Source of the DNA: an uncultured Eubacteriales bacterium | GTDB taxonomy: Bacteria; Bacillota; Clostridia; Oscillospirales; UBA644 | NCBI GenBank assembly: GCA_902373415.1 | Contig: CABKLX010000007.1 | Span: forward strand, 87,894 to 151,893 | Direction of reading: 5' to 3' | DNA: 64,000 bases | Part shown: positions 2,628 through 26,848 of the stretch, in pieces | Layout: each line of letters opens with the position of its first letter | Position numbering within the stretch: position 1 is the stretch's first letter | Made by a program: the position numbers and the translations under genes | The notes under the pieces: generated by a model | What the model was told of the DNA's origin: nothing | What the model saw: the letters and a program-made list of their open reading frames with translations, nothing else | Database searches by the model: none

Positions 2628-2828
2628 TAGGTTTTTCAGTTGTTTACAAAAAATACATATTTTTCCGTCTTCTCCGTTTTACCTCCGCTTTTTCTCCCGT
2701 ATATCCGCCATCTTTGCCCGATCTCGGCTTTCCGTGAAAAATTCACACGTTCATCTTTACTTTTTTATATTCGCGTGTTATAATATATGTAAAAAGACAA
2801 ATCAGAAAAATCACAGAGGTGAAAGCGA

Positions 2829-3548
2829 ATGGCAAAGAAAATTTTCGTCGTTGACGATGAGAAAAATATCCGCGACATCGTCCGTTCCTATCTTGAAAAA
2901 GAGGGCTTTAATGTCCTCGTTTTCGAAAACGGCGAGTCTGCGCTCGAAGAATATCTGCATTCCGCCCCGGATATGCTCGTTATCGATATCATGATGCCGG
3001 GCATGAGCGGACTTGAACTTTGCAATGAGATCAGAAAGCACGCCAATACCCCGATAATCATTGTTTCCGCCCGCGACGAGGAGATCGACAGAATTCTCGG
3101 CATCGAAATGGGCGCCGACGATTATATGATGAAACCCTTCTCGCCGAAGGAACTTGTTGCCCGCATCAAAGCGGTGTTCAGAAGACTTGACGGGATGGGA
3201 GCCGAAAAACCCGACGGACAGTCGATTCGCTGCCGAGATCTCGTCATCTATCCTTCGGAGAGACGCGCCGTCAGATCCAAGGACGGAAAAGAGACCGATA
3301 TTTCGTTCACCGCGATGGAGTTCGATTTCCTCAACTTCATGATCTCGAACAAGAACCGCGTGTTCACCCGCGATCAGCTTCTCAAAAATATTTGGGATTA
3401 TCAGTATATCGGCGACACCCGCGCTGTCGATGACCTTGTCAAGAGGATCAGAAAGAAACTCGACGCGAACGAGACCGATTTCTGCATCGACACCGTTTGG
3501 GGCTACGGCTACAAAGTGACGGATTATACCGACAGAAACGATGGCTAA
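2829..3548 (+). CDS. OmpR-family response regulator (receiver + winged-helix DNA-binding domain)
   Basis: 239 aa; N-term KIFVVDDEKNIRDIV with receiver Asp; C-terminal winged helix (…RVFTRDQLLKNIWDY…GYGYK…); RBS gaGGtGaaagcgaATG. Confidence 0.9.
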   Translation: MAKKIFVVDDEKNIRDIVRSYLEKEGFNVLVFENGESALEEYLHSAPDMLVIDIMMPGMSGLELCNEIRKHANTPIIIVSARDEEIDRILGIEMGADDYMMKPFSPKELVARIKAVFRRLDGMGAEKPDGQSIRCRDLVIYPSERRAVRSKDGKETDISFTAMEFDFLNFMISNKNRVFTRDQLLKNIWDYQYIGDTRAVDDLVKRIRKKLDANETDFCIDTVWGYGYKVTDYTDRNDG

Positions 3549-4950
3549 ACGAAAAATAAGAATAAGCATACGCAGGAAAATGGCTTTTTCCTATATTATG
3601 CTTGTTCTTCTCGTCGCCCTTATCTCCGTCGGCTTCATGCTCGTTTTTCTTGACGGATATGTCGTGAGCCGCGAGCGCGAAAGCCTCGAACGCACGGCAA
3701 ATCAGATAAGGGAGTTGAAATTCCGAAATCTTTACGATCCCGGAAGCTCCGACATAGACGCTCTGACTTCGATCGCCTCCGATCGGAACTATTCGGTCGT
3801 TATCCTGAATTCGGATCTGAAATATATCGACAGCATAAACGCCGATTCCCTGATTTCCTTCAACGATTCGGAAGATAAATTCATTTCCTCCGTGATCAGA
3901 AACGATCTCGGGAGCGGAACCGCGTCCGTCGCCGAAAAGGGAAGAGTCCGATTTCTTGTCAGCAGCGTCGGGGTCGAAGATTCGCTGAGGGATTCATATT
4001 ATATCGTCCTTGCCACGCCTGTCACGAATTTCGGCTTCGGAAGCAATTTTTTCAGATTTTATCTGCTTTCGATCCTCTTCGCTTCCGTGTTCGCGCTGTT
4101 GCTCTCGGAAGTCCTTTCGGATAAGATGACATCGGATATAAAGAGACTCAAATACCGCGCCGAACTTCTTGCCGAGCGTAAATTCGACGTCGATGTGCCG
4201 ATCCGTTCAAACGATGAGGTCGGAGAACTTGCGGAGTCTATCGACAAGATGGCGGACAGCATACGGGAATATGACAACAATCAGAAAATATTCCTTCAAA
4301 ACGCTTCGCACGAGTTGCGTACGCCGCTGATGTCGATCCGCGGTTATGTCGAAGGCATAAAAGACGGAGTGTTCACGGACACCGATTATGCCTATGACAT
4401 GATCCTTTCCGAAACATCGCGTCTCGAAAAACTTGTCAATGAAGTTATGTATCTTTCAAAGATTGAGACGGCGGACGGAATGATAAAACTCGTTCCGGTC
4501 GAACTCAGCGATATAATGAGCGAGACGGAAGAACGTGTTCACGGCGTTTTCGATAACAGCGACGTGAAACTCACCGTTGCGGATATTCCGAAAATCGAAA
4601 TGAACGCGGACTGCGACAATCTTTCGACCGCGTTGACAAATATCATAACGAACTGTCTGCGCTACGCAAAGAGCGAGATCAAGATCGAATTTATCGTTTC
4701 CGAAAAACTCATCGTCCGCATTTCCGACGACGGAAACGGTATAAACGAAGCCGATCTTCCGTTTATTTTCAAGCGTTTTTACAAGGGACAGAAGGGCAAA
4801 TACGGACTCGGTCTCGCGATCGCAAAAGCCGTTGCCGAGGCGCACGACGGTTCCGTCCGCGCGTATAACAAGCAACAGTTCCCCGAAAATTTCGGAGAAA
4901 ACGTGACCGGCGCCGTTTTCGACATCGCGCTTCCTTATATTCCCTCTTAA
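3541..4950 (+). CDS. sensor histidine kinase (TM + HAMP + HisKA + HATPase_c)
   Basis: 469 aa; overlaps the regulator stop by 8 nt; two TM segments; H-box FLQNASHELRTPLMSIRGY; C-terminal ATPase G-boxes (…DDGNGI…GLGLAIAK…). Confidence 0.9.
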   Translation: MAKRKIRISIRRKMAFSYIMLVLLVALISVGFMLVFLDGYVVSRERESLERTANQIRELKFRNLYDPGSSDIDALTSIASDRNYSVVILNSDLKYIDSINADSLISFNDSEDKFISSVIRNDLGSGTASVAEKGRVRFLVSSVGVEDSLRDSYYIVLATPVTNFGFGSNFFRFYLLSILFASVFALLLSEVLSDKMTSDIKRLKYRAELLAERKFDVDVPIRSNDEVGELAESIDKMADSIREYDNNQKIFLQNASHELRTPLMSIRGYVEGIKDGVFTDTDYAYDMILSETSRLEKLVNEVMYLSKIETADGMIKLVPVELSDIMSETEERVHGVFDNSDVKLTVADIPKIEMNADCDNLSTALTNIITNCLRYAKSEIKIEFIVSEKLIVRISDDGNGINEADLPFIFKRFYKGQKGKYGLGLAIAKAVAEAHDGSVRAYNKQQFPENFGENVTGAVFDIALPYIPS

Positions 4951-4990
4951 CAGCCGCCGCACAGGGTTAAATAGGATAAATAACGTATTT

Positions 4991-5027
4991 CATCTCCGCA
5001 TAGAATATATGCGGAGATGATCTTTTT
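4991..5027 (+). terminator. rho-independent terminator after the histidine kinase gene
   Basis: stem catctccgcata / tatgcggagatg followed by a T-run (tcttttt); overlaps the first ATG of the next ORF, so that gene may really start at the downstream TTG. Confidence 0.6.
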
Positions 5028-5622
5028 GAAAAAAAAACTGCTTTTTCTCGCCGTCGCATCTCTCTTTTTCCTCGGCGGTTGCGGGATCGACGGATCGGGA
5101 AACGGGAATTTGATATATATCGAATATAAAGGCGCTCTTTACTGTCCCGCGCCCGAAGGCTGGGAAGCCTGCGGCGAAGGGACGGAGATCTCTGCGAAAG
5201 CGGGCTACGGAAGAAAAAGCAAAAAACGGAAATGTTCGGCGGTTTCTTTCGGAGACGGGACTTTTCTCGTATACAGCCACGCAGACACGGAAACGCTTCT
5301 TTGCCGATGCGACTGCGACCTTCCGACAGACGCCGACGCAAACGAGGACAGCGGGATTCTTCTGCGGGTGGGCGACGAGGATATACTTCTCGATCCCGAA
5401 AGCGCGGGAAATCTGCTCGGATGCCTCTGCCCCGAAAGACTGACGGAACAGCCGGAGACCGTTTCCGACATAGGACTCGTTTTCGCCGTTTTCCCTTCCG
5501 TCGGCGCGATGAAACTTCTCGGCGTCGTGCGGAGCCTGAGCGACGGGGGAACCGTTCTTTGCCGCGACGGGAGATCGGGTTATCTGCTCCCCGACGGTTT
5601 TTCGGTTGACAAACTGCGATAG
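5017..5622 (+). CDS. hypothetical lipoprotein
   Basis: 201 aa; signal peptide + lipobox LFFLGGCG; start uncertain (ATG at 5017 lies inside the terminator stem; TTG at ~5026 is an alternative). Confidence 0.55.
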   Translation: MIFLKKKLLFLAVASLFFLGGCGIDGSGNGNLIYIEYKGALYCPAPEGWEACGEGTEISAKAGYGRKSKKRKCSAVSFGDGTFLVYSHADTETLLCRCDCDLPTDADANEDSGILLRVGDEDILLDPESAGNLLGCLCPERLTEQPETVSDIGLVFAVFPSVGAMKLLGVVRSLSDGGTVLCRDGRSGYLLPDGFSVDKLR

Positions 5623-5657
5623 TTGTGATATTATAAAACGGAAAGGGGAGTGCCGCG

Positions 5658-6377
5658 ATGAGAAAAAAACTGCTTGCGACGATCGGACTGTGCGTATGCA
5701 CGGCGTTCTCTTTTTGCGCGTGCGGACTGCTCGGAAAAGAACCGGAACCCACGACTCCGCCTTCGGTGAATAACGGTCTGTCCGCGTCCGTCAAGGTCGG
5801 AAACAAAACGTATTTTTCCGTTGACGGCAGAGGCTTTGCCGAAGATTTTCCGACGGAGGATGTCCTCGACGGAGAAGGACGGGCGGTCAGGGCTGTCGAT
5901 TATCTTCTTTACGGAAAAGAGAAACGGCTGATCGAGGGTTACAGCGAGTATGAATATGACGAAGCCGGCAACATCAAGGTTCGGATAAAGTACGATACTC
6001 TCGGAAATTTTGTTGCGGAATACCGTTACGAGACGGATGAAAAGTTCGGAAAGCCCTCGGAAATATCCGTTTATAACAGCGACGGGGGACTTGAAAGCCG
6101 AACCGAATATACATATGTGCGCGTCATCACTCCCAATCGCGACCCGGGGTATGTTTACACCGAAAAAACCGTGACGGAATACGACGGACAGGGCGCTCTT
6201 ATCGGCACCTGCGAATACGAGTATTATGAGCAGTCCGACGGAAGTCCGAAAACGAAAACATACCGCGACGCTGACGGAAACATAACGATCTCATACGATT
6301 TTGACGAGACGGGAGATTATTCGTATCTTCATATATACGAGAACGGCGAAGAGGTCGAAACGAAAAAAATAGGGTAG
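5658..6377 (+). CDS. hypothetical lipoprotein with YD-like repeats
   Basis: 239 aa; lipobox FSFCACG; RBS aaGGGGAGtgccgcgATG; repeated xYxYDxxGN motifs (EYEYDEAGNIKV, YRYETDEKFG, YEYYEQSDG, YRDADGNITISYDFDETGDY). Confidence 0.65.
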   Translation: MRKKLLATIGLCVCTAFSFCACGLLGKEPEPTTPPSVNNGLSASVKVGNKTYFSVDGRGFAEDFPTEDVLDGEGRAVRAVDYLLYGKEKRLIEGYSEYEYDEAGNIKVRIKYDTLGNFVAEYRYETDEKFGKPSEISVYNSDGGLESRTEYTYVRVITPNRDPGYVYTEKTVTEYDGQGALIGTCEYEYYEQSDGSPKTKTYRDADGNITISYDFDETGDYSYLHIYENGEEVETKKIG

Positions 6378-16403: not shown

Positions 16404-16479
16404 GGGAGTTTAGCTCAGCTGGGAGAGCATCTGTCTTACAAACAGAGGGTCACAGGTTCGAGCCCTGTAACTCCCACCA
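16404..16479 (+). tRNA. tRNA-Val (anticodon TAC)
   Basis: GGGAGTT…AACTCCC acceptor stem; anticodon arm TCTGT-CTTACAA-ACAGA; T-loop GGTTCGAGCCC; ends ACCA (CCA encoded). Confidence 0.9.
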
Positions 16480-16522
16480 CTTTCTTAAACACCGCGCCGA
16501 ACGGTTCGGTCGCATTATATAC

Positions 16523-16599
16523 GGCTTCGTAGTTCAGTTGGTTAGAACGCCGCCCTGTCACGGCGGAGGTCGTGGGTTCGAGTCCCATCGGAGTCGCCA
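16523..16599 (+). tRNA. tRNA-Asp (anticodon GTC)
   Basis: anticodon arm CCGCC-CTGTCAC-GGCGG; T-arm GTGGGTTCGAGTCCCAT; acceptor stem has two G-U pairs; CCA encoded. Confidence 0.85.
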
Positions 16600-16606
16600 T
16601 TTTTTT

Positions 16607-16682
16607 GCGGTATTAGCTCATCTGGTAGAGCGCAACCTTGCCAAGGTTGAGGTAGCGGGTTCGAGCCCCGTATACCGCTCCA
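16607..16682 (+). tRNA. tRNA-Gly (anticodon GCC)
   Basis: GCGGTAT…ATACCGC acceptor stem; anticodon arm CAACC-TTGCCAA-GGTTG; T-loop GGTTCGAGCCC; CCA encoded. Confidence 0.9.
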
Positions 16683-16847
16683 TCGAAATCGTCCTGCAAC
16701 AGCGGGGCGGTTTTTGCTTTACGGCTCTTTTTTCCGCGTTCGGGCTTTTTGATACGGCGCGGAGGCAGACAACAGGTTTTCGTATTTAATAAAAAATATG
16801 ACGGCGCAGAGGTATTTTTCTCTTGTGATGAAAACCGTGCGACAGTG

Positions 16848-16882
16848 ATATGCACCCCAAAAGTCAGACACTTTTGGGGTGC
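16848..16882. other. perfect 14-bp palindromic hairpin (terminator-like) between the tRNA operon and a convergent lipoprotein gene
   Basis: tgcaccccaaaagt cagac acttttggggtgca; no clean T-run on either side, so its function as a terminator is unproven. Confidence 0.4.
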
Positions 16883-16933
16883 ATATCATGTGCGGGTATT
16901 TTATCTGCTTAATATATTTTCCGTTGATTCCGT

Positions 16934-17851
16934 CTATGACGGATAGCGTGCCAGTTTATAATTCTTTATTTCCATCGTGCAGTCGAAACTCCCGTGGATC
17001 TCCCAGCCGATGTTCGTTCCCGTGAAACAGAGATCGTCCGCGGTGATCTGTCTGCCGAAAATGCCGGACTCATTTATCCTGTTTACGAGTTTTTTGATGT
17101 GAGGCGTCAGATCGACCTCAAAGTGTGTCCATTCTTTTGTCGTTTTCAGACGGAGCGCGTTGGTTCTGCCTCCCATTGAATCGACCGTCGAAAGCGCGTA
17201 GATCATGCATCCGCTCGCGATGTCGTGCTGCCAGTTTGTCGGTTGAAGTCCGCGGCTGTCGAATATCCGCATTCCGAACCATACAAACCCCGGTCCGTCG
17301 GTCGCGCGTACATACAGGAATATCAGAAATTCGGCCGCGCTGACGCCTTCACCGACGCAGTCGGGTTTGAAATCCGCGAGACGGAGATCTCCGGAAACAA
17401 CGTACTTACCCGCGCTGAGAGGGGAATCGTCAAAAAAATCGGAGGAGGAGGACGTGTTTTCAAGCAACAGATGCGGCCACGCGTCTTCTCCGGCGGGCGC
17501 GCCGTCGTAGTATCCCGCGGCGTTCAGCCGAAGAGAAACGCTGTCCTGCACGGGATCGTATGTCACGGTCTTTACTTTTCCGTCCGTCAGAACGTTCGGG
17601 TCTCCCGTGTCAACGCGGTCGTCCCACAGGCACGGTCCCGAATTCCATTGGGCGAGGATCCATTCGGGAGACGCGCTGTTTTCGGGAAATGTTCCGAGAT
17701 CTTCATAACTTCCGTCGGAACGGAGTTGACTGCGAACGGCAAAACCGTTCGTAAACCCCGAATTTCCGAATAAATATTTCCGAACACTGCAACTGCTCAA
17801 CAAAACGATCACCAAGATTCCCGATATTATTGCGGATAATACTTTTTTCAT
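16934..17851 (-). CDS. hypothetical lipoprotein
   Basis: start placed at MKKVLSAIISGILVIVLLSSCS (lipobox) with RBS AAGGAGatattttATG; the ORF track's 63-codon upstream extension is ignored. Confidence 0.7.
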   Translation of the reverse strand: MKKVLSAIISGILVIVLLSSCSVRKYLFGNSGFTNGFAVRSQLRSDGSYEDLGTFPENSASPEWILAQWNSGPCLWDDRVDTGDPNVLTDGKVKTVTYDPVQDSVSLRLNAAGYYDGAPAGEDAWPHLLLENTSSSSDFFDDSPLSAGKYVVSGDLRLADFKPDCVGEGVSAAEFLIFLYVRATDGPGFVWFGMRIFDSRGLQPTNWQHDIASGCMIYALSTVDSMGGRTNALRLKTTKEWTHFEVDLTPHIKKLVNRINESGIFGRQITADDLCFTGTNIGWEIHGSFDCTMEIKNYKLARYPS

Positions 17852-18032
17852 AAAATATCTCCTTTTAAGGTTCTGTCCGCCGCCGTTTTCCTCCTCGGAC
17901 AGATAAAGCGCCGCATATATGTTAACCTTATCATAACCCCGACGGTTTGTCAAGCCTTTCGGAGCGAAAAATCGTTTTGTCTCTGATTTTCTGTCGGTCT
18001 TCGGCTGTCTGACACGGTATATCGGCAAAGAA

Positions 18033-18060
18033 AGCGGCATCCGTATTCGCGGATGCCGCT
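18033..18060 (+). other. hairpin 8 nt upstream of the intron 5' fragment (terminator-like homing-site structure)
   Basis: agcggcatccg tattcg cggatgccgct: 11-bp perfect stem, no T-run. Confidence 0.5.
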
Positions 18061-18068
18061 CGGCTTAT

Positions 18069-18127
18069 GTGCGCCCGGTGAGCGCACGTCCTATGGGGTG
18101 AAAGTCCCGAAGTTGCCCGGTAACGGA
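18069..18127 (+). mobile_element. truncated 5' end (about 59 nt of domain I) of a class-IIC-like group II intron
   Basis: GTGCGCCCGGTGAGCGCACGTCCTATGGGGTGAAAGTCCCGAAGTTGCCCGGTAACGG; canonical GUGCG 5' boundary; 54 of 58 positions match the start of the full intron at 21753; similarity stops abruptly at 18127. Confidence 0.65.
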
Positions 18128-18415
18128 GTGTCAACCAAGTACCTCAATCGGTATCTCGCAATGTTCGTCGCTCTCGAACAGGCGGGACGCTCCCTGTTCC
18201 ATCCTGACGTGGATGCAGTTAGAATCATGCTTTCCCGGGTGAATACCGCTCTGCCAATCCGCTCTCTTCGCAAAGATGGCCTTTTGGCAATTTGACGATT
18301 AGGTCCAATGTTTTAAACTAACACGAAAATAATTGTCCGATTTCAACAAAAAAACGGAAGAACCGTCAAAAATGGGTTGTTTTGGAGCCAAATGTGTGGT
18401 AGAATCATTTTGTCA

Positions 18416-18496
18416 AGTTTTAAAACGTTTTAAAACAGAGGAGGCGGGGGCTGCCTGATCCCAATCCGTGTTCCCACATCTTAAAACGTTTAAATA
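18416..18496 (+). promoter_or_regulatory. candidate LacI-family operator palindromes in the rhamnosidase promoter region
   Basis: gTTTTAAAACGTTTTAAAAC (perfect palindrome with a central CG) and a second cTTAAAACGTTTAAat about 45 nt downstream; preceded by ttgttt-17-TGgTAGAAT promoter-like elements. Confidence 0.4.
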
Positions 18497-18602
18497 AAGG
18501 CGCATACCGGCGGCTGCCGGGACACGCGGGCGGGGACGGTTTCCACCGCGTATTGCAAAAATCCCGGTCAATCAGAAAAATCTGTCAGATGGAGGCGGCG
18601 AC

Positions 18603-20774
18603 ATGGCATTTGAAAACAGTTCCTTTATCAAACCGGCGGAGCAGTTTGACCCGGCGCGGCTGGACTACGCGCCCATGTTCCGGAAAAAATTCACGGTGGA
18701 CACGGCGGTGCAATTCGCGGTGCTGACGGTTTGTGGTCTGGGATACGGCTACTATTATCTCAACGGCAGCGAGATGACGCCGGACCTGTTCACGGCGCCG
18801 GTGAGCAACTACGAAAAAACCCTGTGGTACAACCGCTATGACGTGACGGAGCAGATCAAAACCGGAGAGAACATCTTGGCCGTGATCTGCGGCAATGGCT
18901 GGTACAATGAGGGCATCAGGACCGCGTGGGACTATGACGCCGCGCCATGGCGCGACATCCCCAAATTCATTCTGACCCTGGAAATCAACGGAGAAGTGGC
19001 GGTCCGCAGTGACGCAAGCTGGAGATATACCTTAAAATCGCCCTATCTGTATAATCAGCTCCGGGTGGGTGAGCACTTTGATGCCAGATTGTACGACGAG
19101 AACTGGAACCAGCCGGACTTTGACGACAGCGCCTGGGGGTATGCCAAAGAGGATGACCATCCGCCGAAAGGAATCTTCCGGGAGTGCCTTTGCCAGCCCA
19201 TCCGGGTATGCGGCGAATACCCGCCGAAGTCGGTGAAAAAAATCGGAGAGGACCGGTATTTGTTTGACTTTGGGCTAAATATGTCGGGCGTTGCCCGGCT
19301 GAAGGTCCATCAGAGCGCCGGAGACCGGATCGTACTGGAATACGCCGAAAGCATGAATCCGGACAATACCATCCAATACAATGACATGGACAATCCCCAC
19401 TATTACCCGGACAGCCCGTTCCAGACGGACGAATTCATCTGCGGCGGCGGGGAAATGACGTGGACACCCAAATTTACTTATCACGGCTTCCGGTATGTGG
19501 TGGTCACGGGGCTGAAAGAGGCAACCGCGGAAACACTGACGGCGCTGTTTATCCATCAGGATGTAAACCGGATCAGCGACTTTGAATGCTCTGACGAGAA
19601 CCTGAACAGCCTGTTCCGGATCGGCATCCAGGCAACCTGGTCCAATCTGTTCTACATGCCCACGGACTGCCCCACCCGGGAGAAGCTGGGTTGGATGAAC
19701 GATGCCCAAAGCTCCATCGAACAGATGCTGACGGACTTCGACATGGAAAAGCTGCTGACGAAATGGTGGCAGGATATCTGCGACGCCATGCGGGAGGACG
19801 GCATGCTGCCGGGGATTGTGCCCAGTTCGGGTTGGGGTTACGAGTGGGGCAACGGCCCCGTTTCGGAGGGAACCCTGTTTGAGATCCCTTACAGGATCTA
19901 TCTGCACACCGGTGACGATACCCTGCTGAAAAAAGGTCTGACCTATTTCAAAAAGTACAACCGGTATTTGCAGGGCTGCAAGGATGCCAAGGGCGATATC
20001 TGCTACGGACTGGATGACTGGGCGCCTCCGGATAACACGGACAAGGTTGGCGCGGCTTTTATCAACAAGGTGTTTACCATCAAATTCCTGCGGATTACCA
20101 TCCTGGCCCAACGGGTCAGCGGCGAGGACCCGGCGGAAACCCAGGCGCTTCTGGACCGGGAAATTCAGGAAATCCGGAACCGCTACCTGGATGAGACGGG
20201 CCGATGCACCATCCACAAGCAGACGGCGGTGGCCATGCTGGTGTACAACGGTCTGTATGAAAATCTGGCGCCCCTGTCGGAACAGCTGAAAGAACTGGTG
20301 GAGGAAAAGAATTTCCACCACGACTGCGGCATGGTGGGCCTGCGGCGGTTGTACATGGCACTGAATCGCTGCGGCCTGCAGGAATACGCCTACCGCATCA
20401 TCACGGCCAGAGGCTTCCCGTCCTATGTGAGCTGGCTGGAGGACGGCGCCACCGCGCTTTGTGAGTTCTGGGATATGTCGGTGTCTCAAAACCACCATAT
20501 GTATTCCGATTTCATGTCCTGGATGATGAAAACCATTCTGGGCATCGGTGCGGATATTGCCCATCCCGGCTTTACACAGGTGGAAATCAATCCGTATTTC
20601 TTCCGGGAACTCACTTACGCCAGGGGCTATTGCGGTACGGTGCGCGGGCGCATCGGCGTCGCCTGGAAGCGTACGAGTGACAGAATCGAGCTGACGGTGG
20701 AAGTGCCGGAGGGCATGACGGTCACTTGCCGGGGGCAGACCCTGAAAAGCGGCGTCAATGTGATCACCGCCTGA
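18603..20774 (+). CDS. alpha-L-rhamnosidase, glycoside hydrolase family 78
   Basis: 723 aa; GH78 catalytic-domain signature MPTDCPTREKLGWMNDAQ; (alpha/alpha)6 six-hairpin C-terminal region; RBS GGAGGcggcgacATG. Confidence 0.85.
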   Translation: MAFENSSFIKPAEQFDPARLDYAPMFRKKFTVDTAVQFAVLTVCGLGYGYYYLNGSEMTPDLFTAPVSNYEKTLWYNRYDVTEQIKTGENILAVICGNGWYNEGIRTAWDYDAAPWRDIPKFILTLEINGEVAVRSDASWRYTLKSPYLYNQLRVGEHFDARLYDENWNQPDFDDSAWGYAKEDDHPPKGIFRECLCQPIRVCGEYPPKSVKKIGEDRYLFDFGLNMSGVARLKVHQSAGDRIVLEYAESMNPDNTIQYNDMDNPHYYPDSPFQTDEFICGGGEMTWTPKFTYHGFRYVVVTGLKEATAETLTALFIHQDVNRISDFECSDENLNSLFRIGIQATWSNLFYMPTDCPTREKLGWMNDAQSSIEQMLTDFDMEKLLTKWWQDICDAMREDGMLPGIVPSSGWGYEWGNGPVSEGTLFEIPYRIYLHTGDDTLLKKGLTYFKKYNRYLQGCKDAKGDICYGLDDWAPPDNTDKVGAAFINKVFTIKFLRITILAQRVSGEDPAETQALLDREIQEIRNRYLDETGRCTIHKQTAVAMLVYNGLYENLAPLSEQLKELVEEKNFHHDCGMVGLRRLYMALNRCGLQEYAYRIITARGFPSYVSWLEDGATALCEFWDMSVSQNHHMYSDFMSWMMKTILGIGADIAHPGFTQVEINPYFFRELTYARGYCGTVRGRIGVAWKRTSDRIELTVEVPEGMTVTCRGQTLKSGVNVITA

Positions 20775-20821
20775 GCCGTATCCGGCGGAAATCTGGAATT
20801 ACTGAATGAGGGGCGATTGCC

Positions 20822-21547
20822 GTGAACATCATGAAATTACTGGCGGAAAAGGCAAAGGACAACTGGAATGCCCGGCCGGTGACCATTGCGTTTTTGGGGG
20901 ACAGCGTCACCCAGGGATGCTTTGAGATTTACAAAAAGAATGAGACGGAGATTGAAACCGTATTCGACAAAAACAATGCCTATCATACGGATGTGGCCAA
21001 AATTCTCGCCGTTCTGTTTCCCAGCGTGCCGGTAAATATCTTCAACGCGGGCATCAGCGGGGACAATGCGCCCCATGCCCTGGAACGGATGGAGCAGGAT
21101 GTCCTGTGCCATCACCCGGACTTAACGGTGGTATGCTTTGGCTTGAACGACTGCGGCAACGGGGTCGAAAAGGTGGAGCAGTATGCCCAGGCGCTGCGAG
21201 GGATTTTTGAAAAGCTGCGGCAGGCGGGTTCAGAGATCATATTCATGACGCCCAATATGATGAATCCCACGGTCAGCTGTCATCTGACGGACCCGCTGAT
21301 GCGGAGCATCGCGGAGGACACCATGCGCCGGCAGAACGGCGGGGTGTTGGAATGCTACCTGGAGAACGCCAGAAAGGTGTGTAGGGAATATGGGGTCACC
21401 CTCTGTGACTGCTACGAAAAGTGGAAGCTTCTGTATGAGAACGGTGTGGATGTGACGGAGCTTTTGGCCAATAAAATCAACCATCCCACCCGGGAAATGA
21501 ACTGGCTGTTTGCGGTGTCCCTGGTGGACACCATGCTGCGGGGATAA
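20822..21547 (+). CDS. SGNH/GDSL-family hydrolase (esterase / acetylesterase-like)
   Basis: 241 aa; block I AFLGDSVTQG with catalytic Ser; block III GLNDCG; C-terminal DxxH-type motif (NHPTREMN). Confidence 0.75.
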   Translation: MNIMKLLAEKAKDNWNARPVTIAFLGDSVTQGCFEIYKKNETEIETVFDKNNAYHTDVAKILAVLFPSVPVNIFNAGISGDNAPHALERMEQDVLCHHPDLTVVCFGLNDCGNGVEKVEQYAQALRGIFEKLRQAGSEIIFMTPNMMNPTVSCHLTDPLMRSIAEDTMRRQNGGVLECYLENARKVCREYGVTLCDCYEKWKLLYENGVDVTELLANKINHPTREMNWLFAVSLVDTMLRG

Positions 21548-21572
21548 CATCACGAAACAAGGAGGAAACAAT

Positions 21573-21695
21573 ATGAAAACCATCAAAGACAAGCAGCTCC
21601 TGGTCGGAGCGGACTTTGCCGGCTATCCGCTGAAGGAAGTTGTCTGCGAGCATCTGGGGGACTACCCGCTGAAGCTGGAAACCAAGCCGGAATAA
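21573..21695 (+). pseudogene. 40-aa N-terminal fragment of an RpiB/LacA/LacB-family sugar-phosphate isomerase
   Basis: MKTIKDKQLLVGADFAGYPLKEVVCEHLGDYPLKLETKPE* resembles the first ~40 residues of RpiB/LacAB (M.IAIGxDxAGxxLKExIxxYL); intact members are ~150 aa; RBS AAGGAGG present. Confidence 0.5.
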
Positions 21696-21716
21696 ACCCT
21701 CCGGTCACGAAACCAA

Positions 21717-21744
21717 GGCGGCATGCTCCGGCGTGCCGCTTTTT
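21717..21744 (+). terminator. rho-independent terminator (intron homing-site hairpin)
   Basis: GGCGGCATGC tccg GCGTGCCGCT followed by TTTTT; the intron begins 8 nt later. Confidence 0.7.
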
Positions 21745-21752
21745 CATACTAT

Positions 21753-22452
21753 GGGCGCCCGGTGAGCGCACGTTCTATAGGGTGAAAGTCCCGAAGTTGC
21801 CCGGTAGCGGGAAGACTTAGCCAAAGGCAAGGGTGTCCATCGCGAGGTGGAATCTGAAGAAAGCCGGATTTTGGGAGTTAAAAGGTCTCCCAATGGGCAA
21901 AACTCTGGCCTGACGAACAGAAATCGCATATAAGGCCGCCGGCGAGGGTAAGTTTGCCTAGCAAAACAAAGCCCAATAGCTACACGGAATCGCTCGCGGT
22001 AAATGCGGCAGGTAAAGAGAGAAAGAATGTGTGAGTACCCGGGGAGGTCTCACAGGCGCATCAAAGTAGACATATTCGAAAAAAAATGCGTAGTAACAAC
22101 GAACTGTGAGAAGTCAGCAGAGGTCATAGTACCGGAAAAAAACCGGGAAGGGCTGAACAATCGTTAGTCCTTTGGAAACAATGGAAGCTACCGAAAACGA
22201 GGGTAAAGAATCTGATTCAGCTTAGCATCCCGGATTGGGCTGCCTACAGATACGGCAACTCTCGCAAAGGCTATTGGCGATTGTCGGGGACAACAACTCT
22301 CGCGAGAGCAATCTCAAACAAAAGACTCGCACAGGCCGGATACTACAGCATCCTTGACCGGTACGAGTCTCTGCACTTATGCGATTGAACCGCCGTGTAC
22401 CGAACGGTACGCACGGTGGTGTGAGAGGTCGGGGCTATTCAGCCCCTCCTAC
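21753..22452 (+). mobile_element. ORF-less group II intron, class IIC-like, about 700 nt
   Basis: 5' GGGCGCCCGGTGAGCGCAC…GGGTGAAAGTCCCGAAG; domain I-type motifs (TAGCCAAAGGCAAGGGTGTCCATCGCGAGGTGGAATCTGAAGAAAGCCGG; CCCGGGGAGGTCTCA…GAAGTCAGCAGAGGTCATAGTACCGG); domain V GAACCGCCGTGTACCGAACGGTACGCACGGTGGT at 22387-22420; domain VI GTCGGGGCTATTCAGCCCCTCCTAC ending …TAC at 22452; no ORF longer than ~100 codons inside. Confidence 0.75.
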
Positions 22453-22478
22453 TCTATTCTGTTTCGTTTCTCGGCGCG

Positions 22479-23333
22479 TCAGTCTTCTTTTCCGCCGCCG
22501 ATAAGTTCTTCAAGAGCGCCGTCGAGATCGTGCGTCTCGTATTCGTCGATCTTTCCGCCGTCGCAAAGTTCCGCGAGGCTCGGGTCGATCGGGAGGCGGG
22601 CAAGAACGGGAAGCCCGTGCTTCTCCGCGATGCGGTCGATGTTGCTCTTTCCGAAAATATGATGTTCTTTTCCGCAGTCGGGACAGCGGAAATAACTGTA
22701 ATTTTCAACGAGTCCTATAACGGGAATGTCCATTTTTTCCGCCATGTTCACGGCTTTATCCACGATCATGGAGACCAGATCCTGCGGAGACGTGACGATG
22801 ATAATCCCGTCAACGGGTATGGATTGGAACACCGTGAGCGGAATGTCGCCCGTTCCCGGAGGCATATCGATATACATGACGTCAACATCGCCCCAGACCA
22901 CGTCCGTCCAGAATTGCTTGACCGTGCCCGCAATGACGGGACCGCGCCATATTACGGGGGTCGTTTCGTCCTCAACGAGCATATTCAGGCTCATCGCGCG
23001 GACGCCGCTTTTCGATATTCCCGGGTAGATCCCGTTATCGTCGGCAAGTGCGCGGTCGCTTATTCCGAGCATTTTCGGAATAGAAGGACCTGTTATATCG
23101 GCGTCGAGCACGGCGGTCTTGAAGCCTTTTTTCGCAGTCATGACGGAAAGCAGGGAAGTGACGGTCGATTTCCCGACGCCGCCCTTGCCGCTGACAACGG
23201 CATAGACCTTTCCGACGGTGCTCAATGAATTTACGGGTTCCAAAAAACTCTGCGGAGCGTTTCTCGAAGAACAGTTTTCTCCGCAGGTCGAACAGTTATG
23301 AGTGCATTCGCTTATCGGATCATATCCTTTCAA
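22479..23333 (-). CDS. Mrp/NBP35 (ApbC)-family iron-sulfur cluster carrier ATPase
   Basis: 284 aa; N-terminal Cys-rich segment; deviant Walker A GKGGVGKST; CPxC motif near the C-terminus (FRCPDCGKEH). Confidence 0.85.
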   Translation of the reverse strand: MKGYDPISECTHNCSTCGENCSSRNAPQSFLEPVNSLSTVGKVYAVVSGKGGVGKSTVTSLLSVMTAKKGFKTAVLDADITGPSIPKMLGISDRALADDNGIYPGISKSGVRAMSLNMLVEDETTPVIWRGPVIAGTVKQFWTDVVWGDVDVMYIDMPPGTGDIPLTVFQSIPVDGIIIVTSPQDLVSMIVDKAVNMAEKMDIPVIGLVENYSYFRCPDCGKEHHIFGKSNIDRIAEKHGLPVLARLPIDPSLAELCDGGKIDEYETHDLDGALEELIGGGKED

Positions 23334-23413
23334 TGCGATCTTCGGCGGAGCGGCGGATCAAACCGTACCTTTTTACTCCGTCTGACATATTATACCCCCG
23401 TAAAGGCAAAAAG

Positions 23414-23626
23414 TCAAGGGTCAAGATCCTCAATTTCGAATATATCCGAAAAACTTGCAAAATCGTTGCGCTCGATATGCGTCATCTCGTGTTTGAGAAC
23501 GAGTTTCTGCTGATCGGGCGTAAGCGATGAGTTTATATAAATGTTGTAGTCTCCCTCTTCGTCCGTGACGGTCACCCCGCGGATGGTCATCGGAAGCGAA
23601 AGAAGGCGGACGTATATTTCGTTCAT
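23414..23626 (-). CDS. mini ImmA/IrrE-like HExxH metallopeptidase-motif protein (70 aa)
   Basis: contains HEMTHIERND; abuts the stop of the upstream XRE regulator gene. Confidence 0.5.
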   Translation of the reverse strand: MNEIYVRLLSLPMTIRGVTVTDEEGDYNIYINSSLTPDQQKLVLKHEMTHIERNDFASFSDIFEIEDLDP

Positions 23627-24037
23627 TTACCTTCTGTTCTGTTTCAGCGCCTCGATGATCGCGACCGTTCTCTCTATATCCTCACGGCTCGCGTTTTTCG
23701 ACGCGGAGAAAAGCATTTTGACCTCGGGTCTTGTCCTGAGCATCTCTCTGAGTTCGGCAAGATCCTCGTTGAGATGGCGCGTGTTGGGCGTTATCCTCGC
23801 AGACATTTCGGAGTCGAGCAGATAATCGTCTCCGAGTTCTTCGTTTTCCATAAAAAGTGTGTCAACGGACACGTTAAAGTGTTTTGCAATTCTTTGAAGC
23901 ATTTCAAGATCGGGCTTTCTGTTGCCCGTTTCCCACATCGCGACGGTGCTGAGCGCGACGCCGAGCGCCTGTGAAAGTTCTTTTTGCGTCATGCCGCTGT
24001 TTTTGCGCAGGACTTTCAAATTTTCCGAAAACCGCAT
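23627..24037 (-). CDS. XRE-family helix-turn-helix transcriptional regulator
   Basis: 136 aa; HTH SGMTQKELSQALGVALSTVAMWETGNRKP. Confidence 0.8.
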   Translation of the reverse strand: MRFSENLKVLRKNSGMTQKELSQALGVALSTVAMWETGNRKPDLEMLQRIAKHFNVSVDTLFMENEELGDDYLLDSEMSARITPNTRHLNEDLAELREMLRTRPEVKMLFSASKNASREDIERTVAIIEALKQNRR

Positions 24038-24230
24038 AGGTAAACCTCTCTTCTTTTTTCTTTTCCTTATTATACATCACGTTTCGTGATTTGTCAAGAG
24101 GTAAAATGCAAAAAATATCACTTTTTTATTTCCGTTCGGATCTCTGACGCGGAAAAAGACGGTTCTTCCCGCATTTTTTCTTCCTCTCGTAGCGTGACAT
24201 AATATTTTATCGAAAAACGATAAAAATATA

Positions 24231-24259
24231 TTGACAAACATGGAAATATATGGTATAAT
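24231..24259 (+). promoter_or_regulatory. sigma-A promoter (TTGACA-17-TGgTATAAT) of the DUF2975-HTH operon
   Basis: ataTTGACAaacatggaaatatatgGTATAATcac; consensus -35 and extended -10; RBS GGAGG 7 nt before the ATG at 24312. Confidence 0.75.
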
Positions 24260-24311
24260 CACTCCAAACAAAGGTCGTGAATTTTAAAAAACGCCGATCG
24301 GAGGTTCTGAT

Positions 24312-24785
24312 ATGCCGAAAATATCGCGAAAAGCGTCGGTGCTGCTTTCCATATGTCTGACGGTACTGTTTCTTGCGGTTCTGATCGTTTGCGCGTTCGC
24401 AATGCCGATGCTTTGCAATGTGTTTGCGGATATTGCGACGATGCATCCGGGCAGAAGTGAACTCTGCGTCGCGGAGAGAATATACCTGCTTGTTGCGGGA
24501 TATCTGATCGTTGCAGTCGCCGCCGTCGCGGATATTCTGATGTTTCTGCTTCTTTTGCGCATTCGCAGAGGGCTTGTCTTCACGCGCGAAAGCGTGTCTG
24601 TCATACGGGCGGTTTCATGGTGCGCGATCTGTTGCGGAGTGATTTTCGCCCTGCTCGGATACATATTTTATATAGCTTATGTGATCGCCGTTGCCGTTTT
24701 GTTTCTCGGGCTTTGCCTGCGGGTCGTTAAAAATGTCATTGAAGAAGCGACCGAATTGAAAAACGAAAACGATCTGACGGTGTGA
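24312..24785 (+). CDS. DUF2975-type integral membrane protein
   Basis: 157 aa; four predicted TM helices; it forms the usual pair with the immediately downstream small HTH regulator. Confidence 0.65.
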   Translation: MPKISRKASVLLSICLTVLFLAVLIVCAFAMPMLCNVFADIATMHPGRSELCVAERIYLLVAGYLIVAVAAVADILMFLLLLRIRRGLVFTRESVSVIRAVSWCAICCGVIFALLGYIFYIAYVIAVAVLFLGLCLRVVKNVIEEATELKNENDLTV

Positions 24786-24795
24786 GTGTGAAATT

Positions 24796-25005
24796 ATGAT
24801 CATAATAAATCTTGACGTCATGATGGCGAAGCGCAAAATATCGCTGAACGAACTTTCCGAAAAGGTCGGGATCACGCTCGCCAATCTGTCGATACTCAAA
24901 AACAACAAAGCGCGCGCCGTGCGGTTTTCGACGCTCGACGCGATCTGCAAAGCCCTCGACTGCGAGGTCGGGGACATTCTCGAATACAGAAAAGAGGAGG
25001 AATAA
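24796..25005 (+). CDS. small XRE/YozG-like HTH transcriptional regulator
   Basis: 69 aa; KISLNELSEKVGITLANLSILKNNKARAVRFSTLDAICKALDCEVGDIL. Confidence 0.8.
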   Translation: MIIINLDVMMAKRKISLNELSEKVGITLANLSILKNNKARAVRFSTLDAICKALDCEVGDILEYRKEEE

Positions 25006-25009
25006 AACA

Positions 25010-26848
25010 ATGAACGATCCGAAAAAAGACGCGTCCGCGGGTGAAGTTGCGAATGTCTTCCCCGAACGCTCCGACAGCGACCGATCTGCGGGCGGTCATG
25101 CCGAAACTTCCGTTCCGCCGACATCTTCACGGCAGGCGCCTCCGCCGCAGCCCTGTTCGCAGGCACAGCCGCAGACATATTCCGATGCACAGAACCCGCC
25201 GCAACAGCACCCCTATTCGCAGGCACAGCCGCAGATATCTTATCAGCCGTCCGCTCCCGCATACACGGTGGTCGCTCCGACACGCGCGGCGCGCCCGAAA
25301 CGCGAATTTACCGCCGCCGAGTCCGTGTTCGCATGGGTATGCTTTATTCTCGGTTATCTGTTCTGCCGTGTCCTCGCAGGCGGTTTCAACCCGCTCGGAG
25401 GCTTTCTGTTCACCGTTCTGATCTTCTCGGTGACCGCCGCTGTCATAAAGATCGAAAAAGCCCTTCCGCCGTTCGCCGCATGGGTCGCCGCCGTGTCCGG
25501 CGTCGTCCTTGCCGCGTCGCTGATCGTTACGGGCAATGAAACCGTGAGGTTCTTCGCGTATCTTTATTCCGCCGCGGCTTATGTCTATTTCGTTTATGCC
25601 GCGTTCGGGAACAAACTCGAAAAGGGCTTTTCCAATCTGCTCTGTCTCGATTTTGTCAAAGCGGCGTTTATATGTCCTTTCACTTCATTTGCGAATATCT
25701 TCCGCAGTTTCGGCGGAAAAAGCAGGAAAAACGGATCGAAAACGTTTTTGAAAGTCCTTGCCGGCATCGGGATCGCTCTGATCCCCTGCATTGTGATAAT
25801 TTCGCTGCTGTGCTATGACGAACGGTTCCGTGAAATGCTCTCTTTTATAAAAAACATCAATTTCGGCACGGTCGTGTCGCATCTGTTCTCCGCGGCGTTC
25901 GGCGTTCCCGTTGCGATGTACGTTTACGGGCTTCTGACGGGGTCAAAGGATAAAAAAACCGAGAAGACCCTGACGGCGGATGATTGCCGCATGCTCGGAG
26001 AACAGACGCGGATAGCCCCCGCCGTGACGGTTGCCGCCGCGACTTTTCCGATCGCGCTGATATATGTCTTTTTCTTTATTTCCCAATGGCAATATTACGT
26101 TTCCGCTTTTTCGGGGAAAATTCCGAGCGGAACGAGTTATTCCGAATACGCCCGCAACGGCTTTTTTGAGCTGGTCGCCGTTTCGTTCATCAATTTTGTC
26201 ATCATCGCGCTCGTCGGGCTGTTCATTAAGCGCAACGGCAAAGGCGCGGAGATAACGCGAAAGACCGTTTCGGTCGTGCTGAGTCTGATGACGCTCGTCC
26301 TCATCGGAACCGCCGCGTCAAAACTCGTTCTTTATATAGACGCGTACGGACTGACGCCGAAAAGAGTTTACGCGGCGTGGGCAATGCTCGTCCTCGCTGT
26401 CCTTTTCCTGCTCGTCACCGTCAAACAGTTCGCGAAAAAACTTCCGCTCGTGACGGTTTCCGTCTTCGCCGTGATCGTCCTTTTCGCGGGGCTTGCCTTC
26501 TCGAACACGGATTCCCTCATCGCGAGATACAATGTCGATCGCTGTCTTGCGGGAACGCTCGACTGCCTTGACACGGAGGCTCTGACCGAATGCGGCGACT
26601 GCGCCGTTCCTCCGCTCGTCGATTTCGTCGCCGATTATGACGAAAAGAACGGAACGAAAGCCGCCGATCTGAACGTCGAAAACTTCCCGTCGGATATCGG
26701 CTTCGGCGAAAGCAACGACGAAAGGGCGCAGTATATCGCCGCCGTAAGATTTCTGAAAGAAAAGGCGGAGGAGGAAACAGGAGTGTTCTCCGAGACGATT
26801 CCGCGATACAAGGCGCGCAAAGCGCTTGCAAGCATCGGGCTCGGATAA
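25010..26848 (+). CDS. polytopic membrane protein with Pro/Gln-rich N-terminal tail (DUF4153-like)
   Basis: 612 aa; N-terminal ~110 aa of low complexity (PPPQPCSQAQPQ…); at least 10 hydrophobic helices; no recognisable catalytic motif. Confidence 0.55.
   Translation: MNDPKKDASAGEVANVFPERSDSDRSAGGHAETSVPPTSSRQAPPPQPCSQAQPQTYSDAQNPPQQHPYSQAQPQISYQPSAPAYTVVAPTRAARPKREFTAAESVFAWVCFILGYLFCRVLAGGFNPLGGFLFTVLIFSVTAAVIKIEKALPPFAAWVAAVSGVVLAASLIVTGNETVRFFAYLYSAAAYVYFVYAAFGNKLEKGFSNLLCLDFVKAAFICPFTSFANIFRSFGGKSRKNGSKTFLKVLAGIGIALIPCIVIISLLCYDERFREMLSFIKNINFGTVVSHLFSAAFGVPVAMYVYGLLTGSKDKKTEKTLTADDCRMLGEQTRIAPAVTVAAATFPIALIYVFFFISQWQYYVSAFSGKIPSGTSYSEYARNGFFELVAVSFINFVIIALVGLFIKRNGKGAEITRKTVSVVLSLMTLVLIGTAASKLVLYIDAYGLTPKRVYAAWAMLVLAVLFLLVTVKQFAKKLPLVTVSVFAVIVLFAGLAFSNTDSLIARYNVDRCLAGTLDCLDTEALTECGDCAVPPLVDFVADYDEKNGTKAADLNVENFPSDIGFGESNDERAQYIAAVRFLKEKAEEETGVFSETIPRYKARKALASIGLG

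Follow-up and report, generated by a model that had tools for sequence, protein, structure and literature searches.

A truncated class C group II intron fused to a decayed IS1595-family remnant in gut Clostridia

Organisation of the locus

The window, by which we mean the whole stretch of 64,000 nucleotides that was analysed, is part of the ENA scaffold FERR18-1_SAMN06350082_METAG-scaffold_10. The region of interest begins with a terminator-like hairpin (hairpin A) and a short spacer, continues with a stub derived from the 5' end of a group II intron, and passes directly into the remnant of an insertion sequence (Table 1). Rhamnosidase (18603-20774) and GDSL-esterase genes follow, and beyond them lies an ORF-less group II intron, to which we refer as the comparator.

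Several neighbouring features deserve mention. On the minus strand at 16934-17851, a listed 368-aa ORF is really a 305-aa lipoprotein gene with its start at 17851, a signal peptide ending in ...LLSSC and the ribosome binding site AAAGGAG; its product matched no Pfam family and had no homologs between 45% and 98% identity. Just past this gene lies a cluster of three tRNAs (16404-16679), in the third of which a Logan contig (L002) breaks. Upstream of the rhamnosidase gene, at 18408-18494, are two palindromic motifs of the form TTAAAACGTTT(T/A)AA, ~60 nt apart, which are possibly operator sites. Beyond the comparator, the minus strand encodes an XRE-type HTH repressor (136 aa) and then an M78/ImmA-like peptidase fragment (70 aa) at 23414-24037, adjoining an Mrp/ParA gene; such a pairing is typical of mobile-element immunity modules.

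Table 1. Positions of the features that make up the composite locus and the comparator intron (position 1 is the first letter of the window).
Feature	Positions	Strand	Basis or remark
Terminator-like hairpin A (AGCGGCATCCG / CGGATGCCGCT, 4-6 nt loop)	18033..18060		Sequence; DNA fold
80-aa chimeric ORF (hairpin arm, stub and transposase tail)	18053..18295	+	Annotated by gene callers
8-nt spacer CGGCTTAT	18061..18068	+	Final 3-4 nt (TTAT/TAT) like the 5'-exon motif of other family copies
Intron-derived stub, unambiguous part (nt 1-52, domain 1, class C group II intron)	18069..18120	+	Alignment to Rfam-verified 21753-21804
Junction microhomology TAACGG	18121..18126	+	Three-way comparison of the intron at 21 kb, the composite and the L003 transposase remnant
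IS1595-family transposase pseudogene fragment, last ~56 codons and stop (...VSTKYLNRYLAMFVALEQAGRSLFHPD...LLAI*)	18127..18295	+	Translation; P0009 homology
Non-coding right terminus of the IS remnant (...GGTCCAATGTTTTAAACTAACACG)	18296..18325	+	Similarity between copies stops here
Comparator: ORF-less class C group II intron, 705 nt	21753..22457	+	Rfam RF02001 (132 bits), RF01998 (51 bits), RF00029 (D5/D6, 43 bits)
Comparator D1-D3	to 22153	+	Rfam
Comparator D4, a 77-codon maturase C-terminus remnant	22155-22387	+	Translation; GIIM-domain homologs
Comparator D5-D6	22388-22457	+	Rfam

The stub at 18069 is the 5' end of a class C intron

When the window was compared with itself by blastn, 18066-18126 aligned with 21750-21810 without gaps (57/61 identities, 93.4%, E 4e-21), or with 54 identities in 58 positions when counted from the intron boundary (18069-18126 against 21753-21810). 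A preliminary description of this DNA, made from the sequence alone, had recognised here a second, truncated 5' end from the same intron family, beginning with GTGCG and matching at about 93%, and the alignment to an Rfam-verified intron bears this out. It had also placed an abrupt end of similarity at 18127; the edge indeed falls at 18126/18127, and the full 21753 intron used as a blastn query recovered only its nucleotides 1-58 at 18069. The change in base composition claimed for the same point was not found, GC content being ~0.52-0.53 on either side: the segment after 18127 differs by origin, not by composition. In-window blastn returned no third copy of the stub or intron 5' end within the 64 kb.

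Rfam confirms the element at 21753 as a group II intron, and it has traits of class C. The stub is accordingly the 5' end of such an intron, a class C (IIC) relic that is no longer functional. It retains the 5' GUGYG motif of that lineage, as GTGCG, and is contiguous by homology with a verified domain I. Domains V and VI and a complete domain I, the marks of a functional group II intron, are lacking, so that it is a fragment. An Rfam E-value scan of 17000-26000 was blank near 18069-18600 and revealed no catalytic domain in the stub; within that range the D1-D4 and D5/D6 models matched solely at 21836-22457, and D5/D6 solely at 22388-22457. The EBS1 region is likewise absent, and the stub carries no reverse transcriptase (RT)/maturase gene. 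Because it has neither D5/D6 nor any further intron sequence, the stub is predicted to be unable either to splice or to move.

The repeat is rare. An exact 23-mer from it was found in one of 185,579 species genomes and in three metagenome stretches, two of which carry the same pair of loci (stub and 21753 intron) in a sister strain, and the viral contigs that were scanned matched neither this intron 5' 23-mer nor a 22-mer across the junction. The stub is also decaying. Two substitutions, at nt 22 and nt 27, are private to the window strain, whereas the stubs of other strains show 0-1 differences over 52 nt; three relatives (L017-L019) have changed G1 to C and read CTGCG at the boundary. Among the annotated homologs of the 80-aa chimeric ORF, frameshifted C-termini (P0208, P0213) and variable N-termini occur. 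This ORF has no Pfam or NCBIfam match and is most likely a pseudogene artefact.

Hairpin A and the insertion site

Class C introns insert at intrinsic terminators (PMC4424553; PMC7306698), and the stub appears, by analogy, to lie where such introns sit, namely a few nucleotides past a terminator-like hairpin and after TTAT. Hairpin A has a perfect stem of 11-12 bp and a folding energy of -15.3 kcal/mol as single-stranded DNA (z -4.9, with 0 of 200 shuffles equal). Its position 8 nt upstream of the stub, and the TAT immediately 5' of both intron boundaries (18069 and 21753), had been noted in the preliminary description and were found again here; the same TAT precedes the boundary in L013. The distance from hairpin to intron is 5-13 nt in the comparator, in six other copies (L011, L012, L013, L031, L032, L034) and in a relative from Clostridium botulinum. 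Hairpin A, at 8 nt, falls within this range, but its T-rich tail (TTTCTTTG) is on the minus strand, opposite to the stub, and a scan for consensus terminators left it uncalled on both strands. If 18069-22457 is taken out, the hairpin falls ~29 nt past the stop codon of the minus-strand Mrp/ParA gene, for which it would then make a good terminator.

The comparator intron is itself a deletion derivative

The comparator begins 13 nt past the hairpin at 21718-21740, which together with its T-run closes the GDSL-esterase operon. It had been regarded as an intact copy; it is instead a 705-nt deletion derivative, ORF-less, with 77 maturase codons left and a 5' end that reads GGGCG. This U2-to-G change is shared by the window strain and L016, and the sister strain L015 (OLPF01000002.1) has GTGCG. 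D5 reads CGC where the Rfam consensus has AGC, which we take to be a class C (IIC) trait. From 22458, after the 3' end, the sequence runs TCTGTTTCG...

The whole of D4 is a single open frame of 77 codons without a start codon, matching the C-terminus of group II maturases. All 57 homologs of this remnant are 52-134 aa long, many with the GIIM domain (PF08388) alone, and there is no full-length RT among them. The D4 mini-ORF could represent a class C lineage with maturase-only mini-ORFs, or a lineage known from decayed copies only. D1-D3 are 65-69% identical to introns on Firmicutes plasmids. One of these, on the C. botulinum p1 plasmid, has an ltrA RT/maturase gene after it; its 5' boundary shows a hairpin, CTTTTAT and, directly across, GTGCGCCC..., the same layout as at 18069.

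A human-gut contig (L016, 1845-2175, minus strand) bears a different deletion at the genomic site that corresponds to window 21740-22200. There, intron nt 1-113 are fused to maturase domain X (KAKLKELTSRS...), the distal part of D1 through D3 and the RT having been lost, and the copy is left without its ribozyme core. The ancestor at this site must have been full length. Internal deletions are eroding the intron family generally, and those of the window and of L016 at the 21753 site differ.

The downstream half is the right end of an IS1595-family element

The 55-aa tail encoded downstream of the junction matched nothing in Pfam or NCBIfam, and its family was reached only transitively. A search of 5.8 billion proteins gave 15 close homologs, all of 60-102 aa. 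The longest, P0009, extends upstream into ...HLNTVNSLHSRLKEMMKHFNG... and aligns with positions 95-147 of PF12762, its C-terminal third, at 18.1 bits, below the cut-off of 27. In an exhaustive HMMER search, P0009 matched the C-termini of three proteins of 330-360 aa (P0031, P0039 and P0040; E 8e-14 to 9e-10), all of which carry PF12762 (DDE_Tnp_IS1595) above the cut-off, at 48-57 bits. Through P0009, 18121-18325 is linked by homology to DDE_Tnp_IS1595, and it is the right end of an IS1595-family element, made up of the ~57 last codons of the transposase gene and a 30-nt terminus.

The tail also stands alone at other loci, with a constant right end (...AACACG / ...TTTAAACTAACACG) that corresponds to window 18325 and is followed directly by at least four different downstream flanks. 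No inverted partner of the right terminus was present within 17600-18500, as is expected once the left end of an element is gone. A miniature element (MITE) was considered and rejected, because nothing upstream matches the IS right end as a left inverted repeat. In these searches no intact member of the IS subfamily came to light.

Independent remnants (L003-L010 and L020-L026) have left truncation points that cluster within ~30 nt of ...AACGGAGTG. One of them, L020 (1589-1780), is the L003 locus (2768-6120) minus ~3.3 kb, in a deletion that ends at the tail. Immediately before the tail it reads CGGTTACGG, which resembles the CGGTAACGG of the stub. The same contig has a near-perfect 104-nt palindrome at 1572-1675, ~110 nt upstream of the IS tail, whose 52-nt arms are 87% complementary and which may belong to another repeat family.

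The junction is real and old

The two halves meet in a short stretch that could belong to either. The intron reads ...CCCGGTAGCGGGAAG, the L003 transposase gene ...CACTTTAACGGAGTGCC and the composite ...CCCGGTAACGGAGTGTC, and this comparison places the crossover within TA(A/G)CGG. Positions 18121-18126 are ambiguous: the intron has TAGCGG and the transposase gene TAACGG, and the A at 18123 is of the transposase type. The blastn match between L003 and the window begins at 18121. Such a junction resembles the product of a microhomology-mediated deletion. Deletion is also the likely cause because the stub is truncated at its 3' side and keeps an intact 5' end. Abortive reverse transcription was rejected as the origin of the stub: target-primed reverse transcription, when abortive, truncates 5' ends and not 3' ends, and the stub has lost its 3' part.

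An assembly join at 18127, raised in the preliminary description as a possible source of error, is refuted by the recurrence of the junction in independent assemblies. A Logan assembly of SRR5274032 reproduces 16654-22120 exactly, a contig from SRR27538876 is 100% identical over 17852-18602, and the junction is 100% identical in the Logan contigs of two runs (L002, L029). It recurs at 98-99% in OLPF01000002.1 (308 kb), in a pig-gut contig and in others, at least six other assemblies from other samples in all. More than 50 contigs, the longest of 666 kb, carry variants of the 80-aa ORF that start with MPLGL, as at the window locus. The join is real and old, not an assembly error.

The flanks of the composite vary between strains

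In short contigs from other samples, no fewer than five further terminator hairpins precede the identical junction between stub and IS tail (contexts B, C, E, F and G, the window being context A). Similarity to the window starts at, or no more than 5 nt from, intron nt 1 (18064-18069), and each flank has a GC-rich hairpin 5-10 nt earlier. In the window, hairpin A is on the lipoprotein side and the rhamnosidase gene lies downstream. Context B (L012) retains the rhamnosidase flank until the contig ends at 18462, as does context F (L034, also P0212) until 18387; context F is known in two protein variants. Context E (L031) continues into the rhamnosidase at 99.3%. Context G follows an N6/N4 DNA methyltransferase gene, comes from two assemblies that are 6 SNPs apart (L032 and L033), and continues into the rhamnosidase at 98.8-99.4%. 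Among phages, the context-G flank found only a methyltransferase match of 68% identity, in an unannotated faecal phage record. Context C (L011) follows the end of a gene and has a different downstream flank as well; it differs from the window once in the first 115 nt, after which the distal tail diverges by ~22%, a mosaic that looks like a recombination breakpoint. A further contig (L018) combines hairpin A with a flank that departs from the window precisely where the IS ends. The upstream flank ends in TCG, TTG and GCT in contexts B, C and G, respectively, instead of TAT/TTAT. Every long contig has context A.

The simplest reading would be that the junction arose a single time and that the sequence upstream of it was exchanged later. 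In these gut Clostridia each of the two halves is a dispersed repeat: further IS tails exist, and further copies of the intron are found behind other terminators. A Faecousia sp. MAG (Oscillospiraceae) has one more hairpin, after which the intron 5' end lies at the edge of a contig. Recombination could for this reason have exchanged the flanks, and such an exchange would explain why the same junction is met behind several hairpins. The multiple contexts are most likely due to recombination between intron 5' ends at dispersed sites, and some of the short contigs may be assembler chimeras.

Discussion

We consider it probable that the composite is a dead class C intron stub joined by one deletion to a decayed IS1595-family remnant, with flanks that later recombined. 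The order of events would be as follows. A terminator-type hairpin would have had an intron copy of the 21753 family a few nucleotides to its 3' side, and an IS1595-family element would have lain between that copy and the rhamnosidase promoter region. A single deletion, its ends in TA(A/G)CGG, would then have run from intron nt ~53-58 to a point ~57 codons before the stop of the transposase gene, and would have taken the remaining intron, including all its catalytic domains, together with most of the IS. What remained would be the hairpin, 52-58 nt of domain 1 and the last ~200 bp of the IS. Later, homologous recombination between dispersed repeats would have swapped the flanks on both sides in some strains.

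The preliminary description had proposed a second homing event into a terminator-like structure, followed by truncation. A truncated copy does lie behind a hairpin; homing at hairpin A itself is unproven, because the identical junction sits behind at least five others. The later truncation stands in a more specific form, as a fusion to the 3' end of an IS1595-family transposase gene.

Certain observations sit less easily with a deleted intron at hairpin A. Six upstream contexts are many for RecA-type recombination over 58 nt of homology, so that another mechanism may be at work, and the non-A contexts come from short contigs only (0.5-3.3 kb). The ancestral state is unobserved: homolog and exact-protein look-ups yielded neither an empty site nor a full-length copy at hairpin A, and the exact-protein look-ups around the locus returned the same arrangement only. 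A T-run opposite to the stub strand is a non-canonical arrangement for a class C insertion, and the fit of hairpin A to the Mrp/ParA gene in the absence of 18069-22457 would suit insertion of the whole block.

On another reading, the alternative contexts (B, C, E, F, G and that of L018) would be metagenome assembler chimeras, formed at the 58-nt and 205-nt repeats, and the stub would always have been at hairpin A. Non-A contexts are confined to short contigs and long contigs to context A, and iterative-k assemblers can carry low-k chimeras into final contigs. Yet context G was recovered by two assemblers from different samples with 6 SNPs between them, context F exists in two sequence variants, the contig names suggest a final k of 141, which exceeds the 58-nt repeat, and L011 would require two chimeric joins. 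We think it unlikely that chimeras explain all of the variation; were they to do so, only the flank exchange would be affected, and the account of the stub as a deletion relic would be compatible with it.

The whole-block alternative goes further. Here 18069-22457, comprising the stub, the IS tail, the rhamnosidase and GDSL-esterase genes, a hairpin and the ORF-less ribozyme, would move as a cassette bounded by intron 5' and 3' ends, either by homologous recombination into resident intron copies or, more radically, through use of the upstream 5' splice site by the ribozyme and reverse-splicing with its cargo. It would accommodate the minus-strand T-run of hairpin A, as well as the recurrence of stub, IS tail and rhamnosidase (98.8-99.4%) behind five hairpins, starting no more than 5 nt from intron nt 1. 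The stub also keeps CACGUUCU, the 5' strand of the basal helix of domain 1, which could pair with AGAAUGUG at 22021-22028. There is a precedent in C.te.I1, in which repeated partial intron segments are used in splicing (PMC4024640). Against this, no contig that has a non-A upstream flank extends beyond the 3' end of the ribozyme, and all long contigs have context A; L018 and L011 split the stub and tail from the rhamnosidase block; variants with G1 changed to C occur; the stub has no 3' strand for the next stem of domain 1; and no RT is encoded in the unit or among the 57 maturase-remnant homologs. Movement of the cassette is improbable in our judgement, and we give even less credence to the stub as a functional left edge for a cargo unit of ~4.4 kb that relocates behind terminators which differ between strains, by recombination or by splicing and reverse splicing with RT supplied in trans. 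If true, such block mobility would give housekeeping cargo genes a new route from one terminator to another.

A function for the stub and tail, or for their first ~115 nt, is more doubtful still, whether as a regulatory RNA or leader of the rhamnosidase operon, as a decoy 5' splice site or as an 80-aa protein. The first 115 nt hardly vary, and L011, although diverged elsewhere, is no exception; every context keeps the ORF open, and more than 50 contigs retain the composite. The conservation was rejected as evidence of function, since tail-only copies lack such a pattern: within the L003-type tail, these 56 nt are not better conserved than the remainder (3/56 against 4/149 differences). The mosaic of L011, as described above, looks like a recombination breakpoint, no Rfam, Pfam or NCBIfam signal was obtained, and the frameshifted ORF variants, the altered G1 and the private substitutions also argue for decay. 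Finally, although the preliminary description had allowed for a high-copy repeat class without intron features or an assembly artefact at 18127, these can be dismissed, the 58 nt being contiguous with Rfam-verified D1-D6 at 21753 and similar to the 5' end of an RT-encoding intron, the 23-mer rare and the junction identical across independent assemblies.

Comparison with known systems

Bacterial copies of group II introns are mostly truncated or inactivated and lie amid other mobile DNA (PMC4424553). A truncated intron beside IS debris is ordinary in bacteria, and the significance of the stub alone is small. The locus is of more use as an example of decay, in which one lineage within one species presents three deletion products, namely the stub, the copy that has no ORF and that of L016, which lacks a ribozyme core. 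In addition, a 58-nt relic seems sufficient to mark a point of flank exchange between strains.

Truncated copies of class C introns such as B.h.I1 and O.i.I1 are the closest parallel. The stub shares with them the GTGCG 5' end, a GC-rich hairpin a few nucleotides before it and TTAT; it matches the start of the Rfam-verified intron nearby at >93% identity, and its truncation next to other mobile DNA follows the bacterial norm (PMC4424553). It differs in being only 52-58 nt long and 3'-truncated, in the T-run of hairpin A on the other strand, and in the presence of the same truncated junction with the IS behind several hairpins. The downstream half likewise recalls solo-end remnants of the IS1595 family (ISXO2-like), given its homology to the DDE_Tnp_IS1595 C-terminus and a constant right terminus over unrelated flanks. 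It differs from them in that no intact subfamily copy was found, no left inverted repeat matches, and the left truncation points of independent remnants cluster (~30 nt).

A third parallel is with ORF-less introns and C.te.I1 of Clostridium tetani. In our case too a complete ORF-less ribozyme is found, 3.7 kb downstream of the stub on the same strand, and the stub duplicates part of that ribozyme upstream of it, together with a canonical 5' splice-site motif. C.te.I1, however, repeats D5-D6 and 3' exons inside one gene, whereas here it is a 5' stub that is repeated, with two unrelated genes and a terminator before the ribozyme, and any use of this stub in splicing is a candidate function only.
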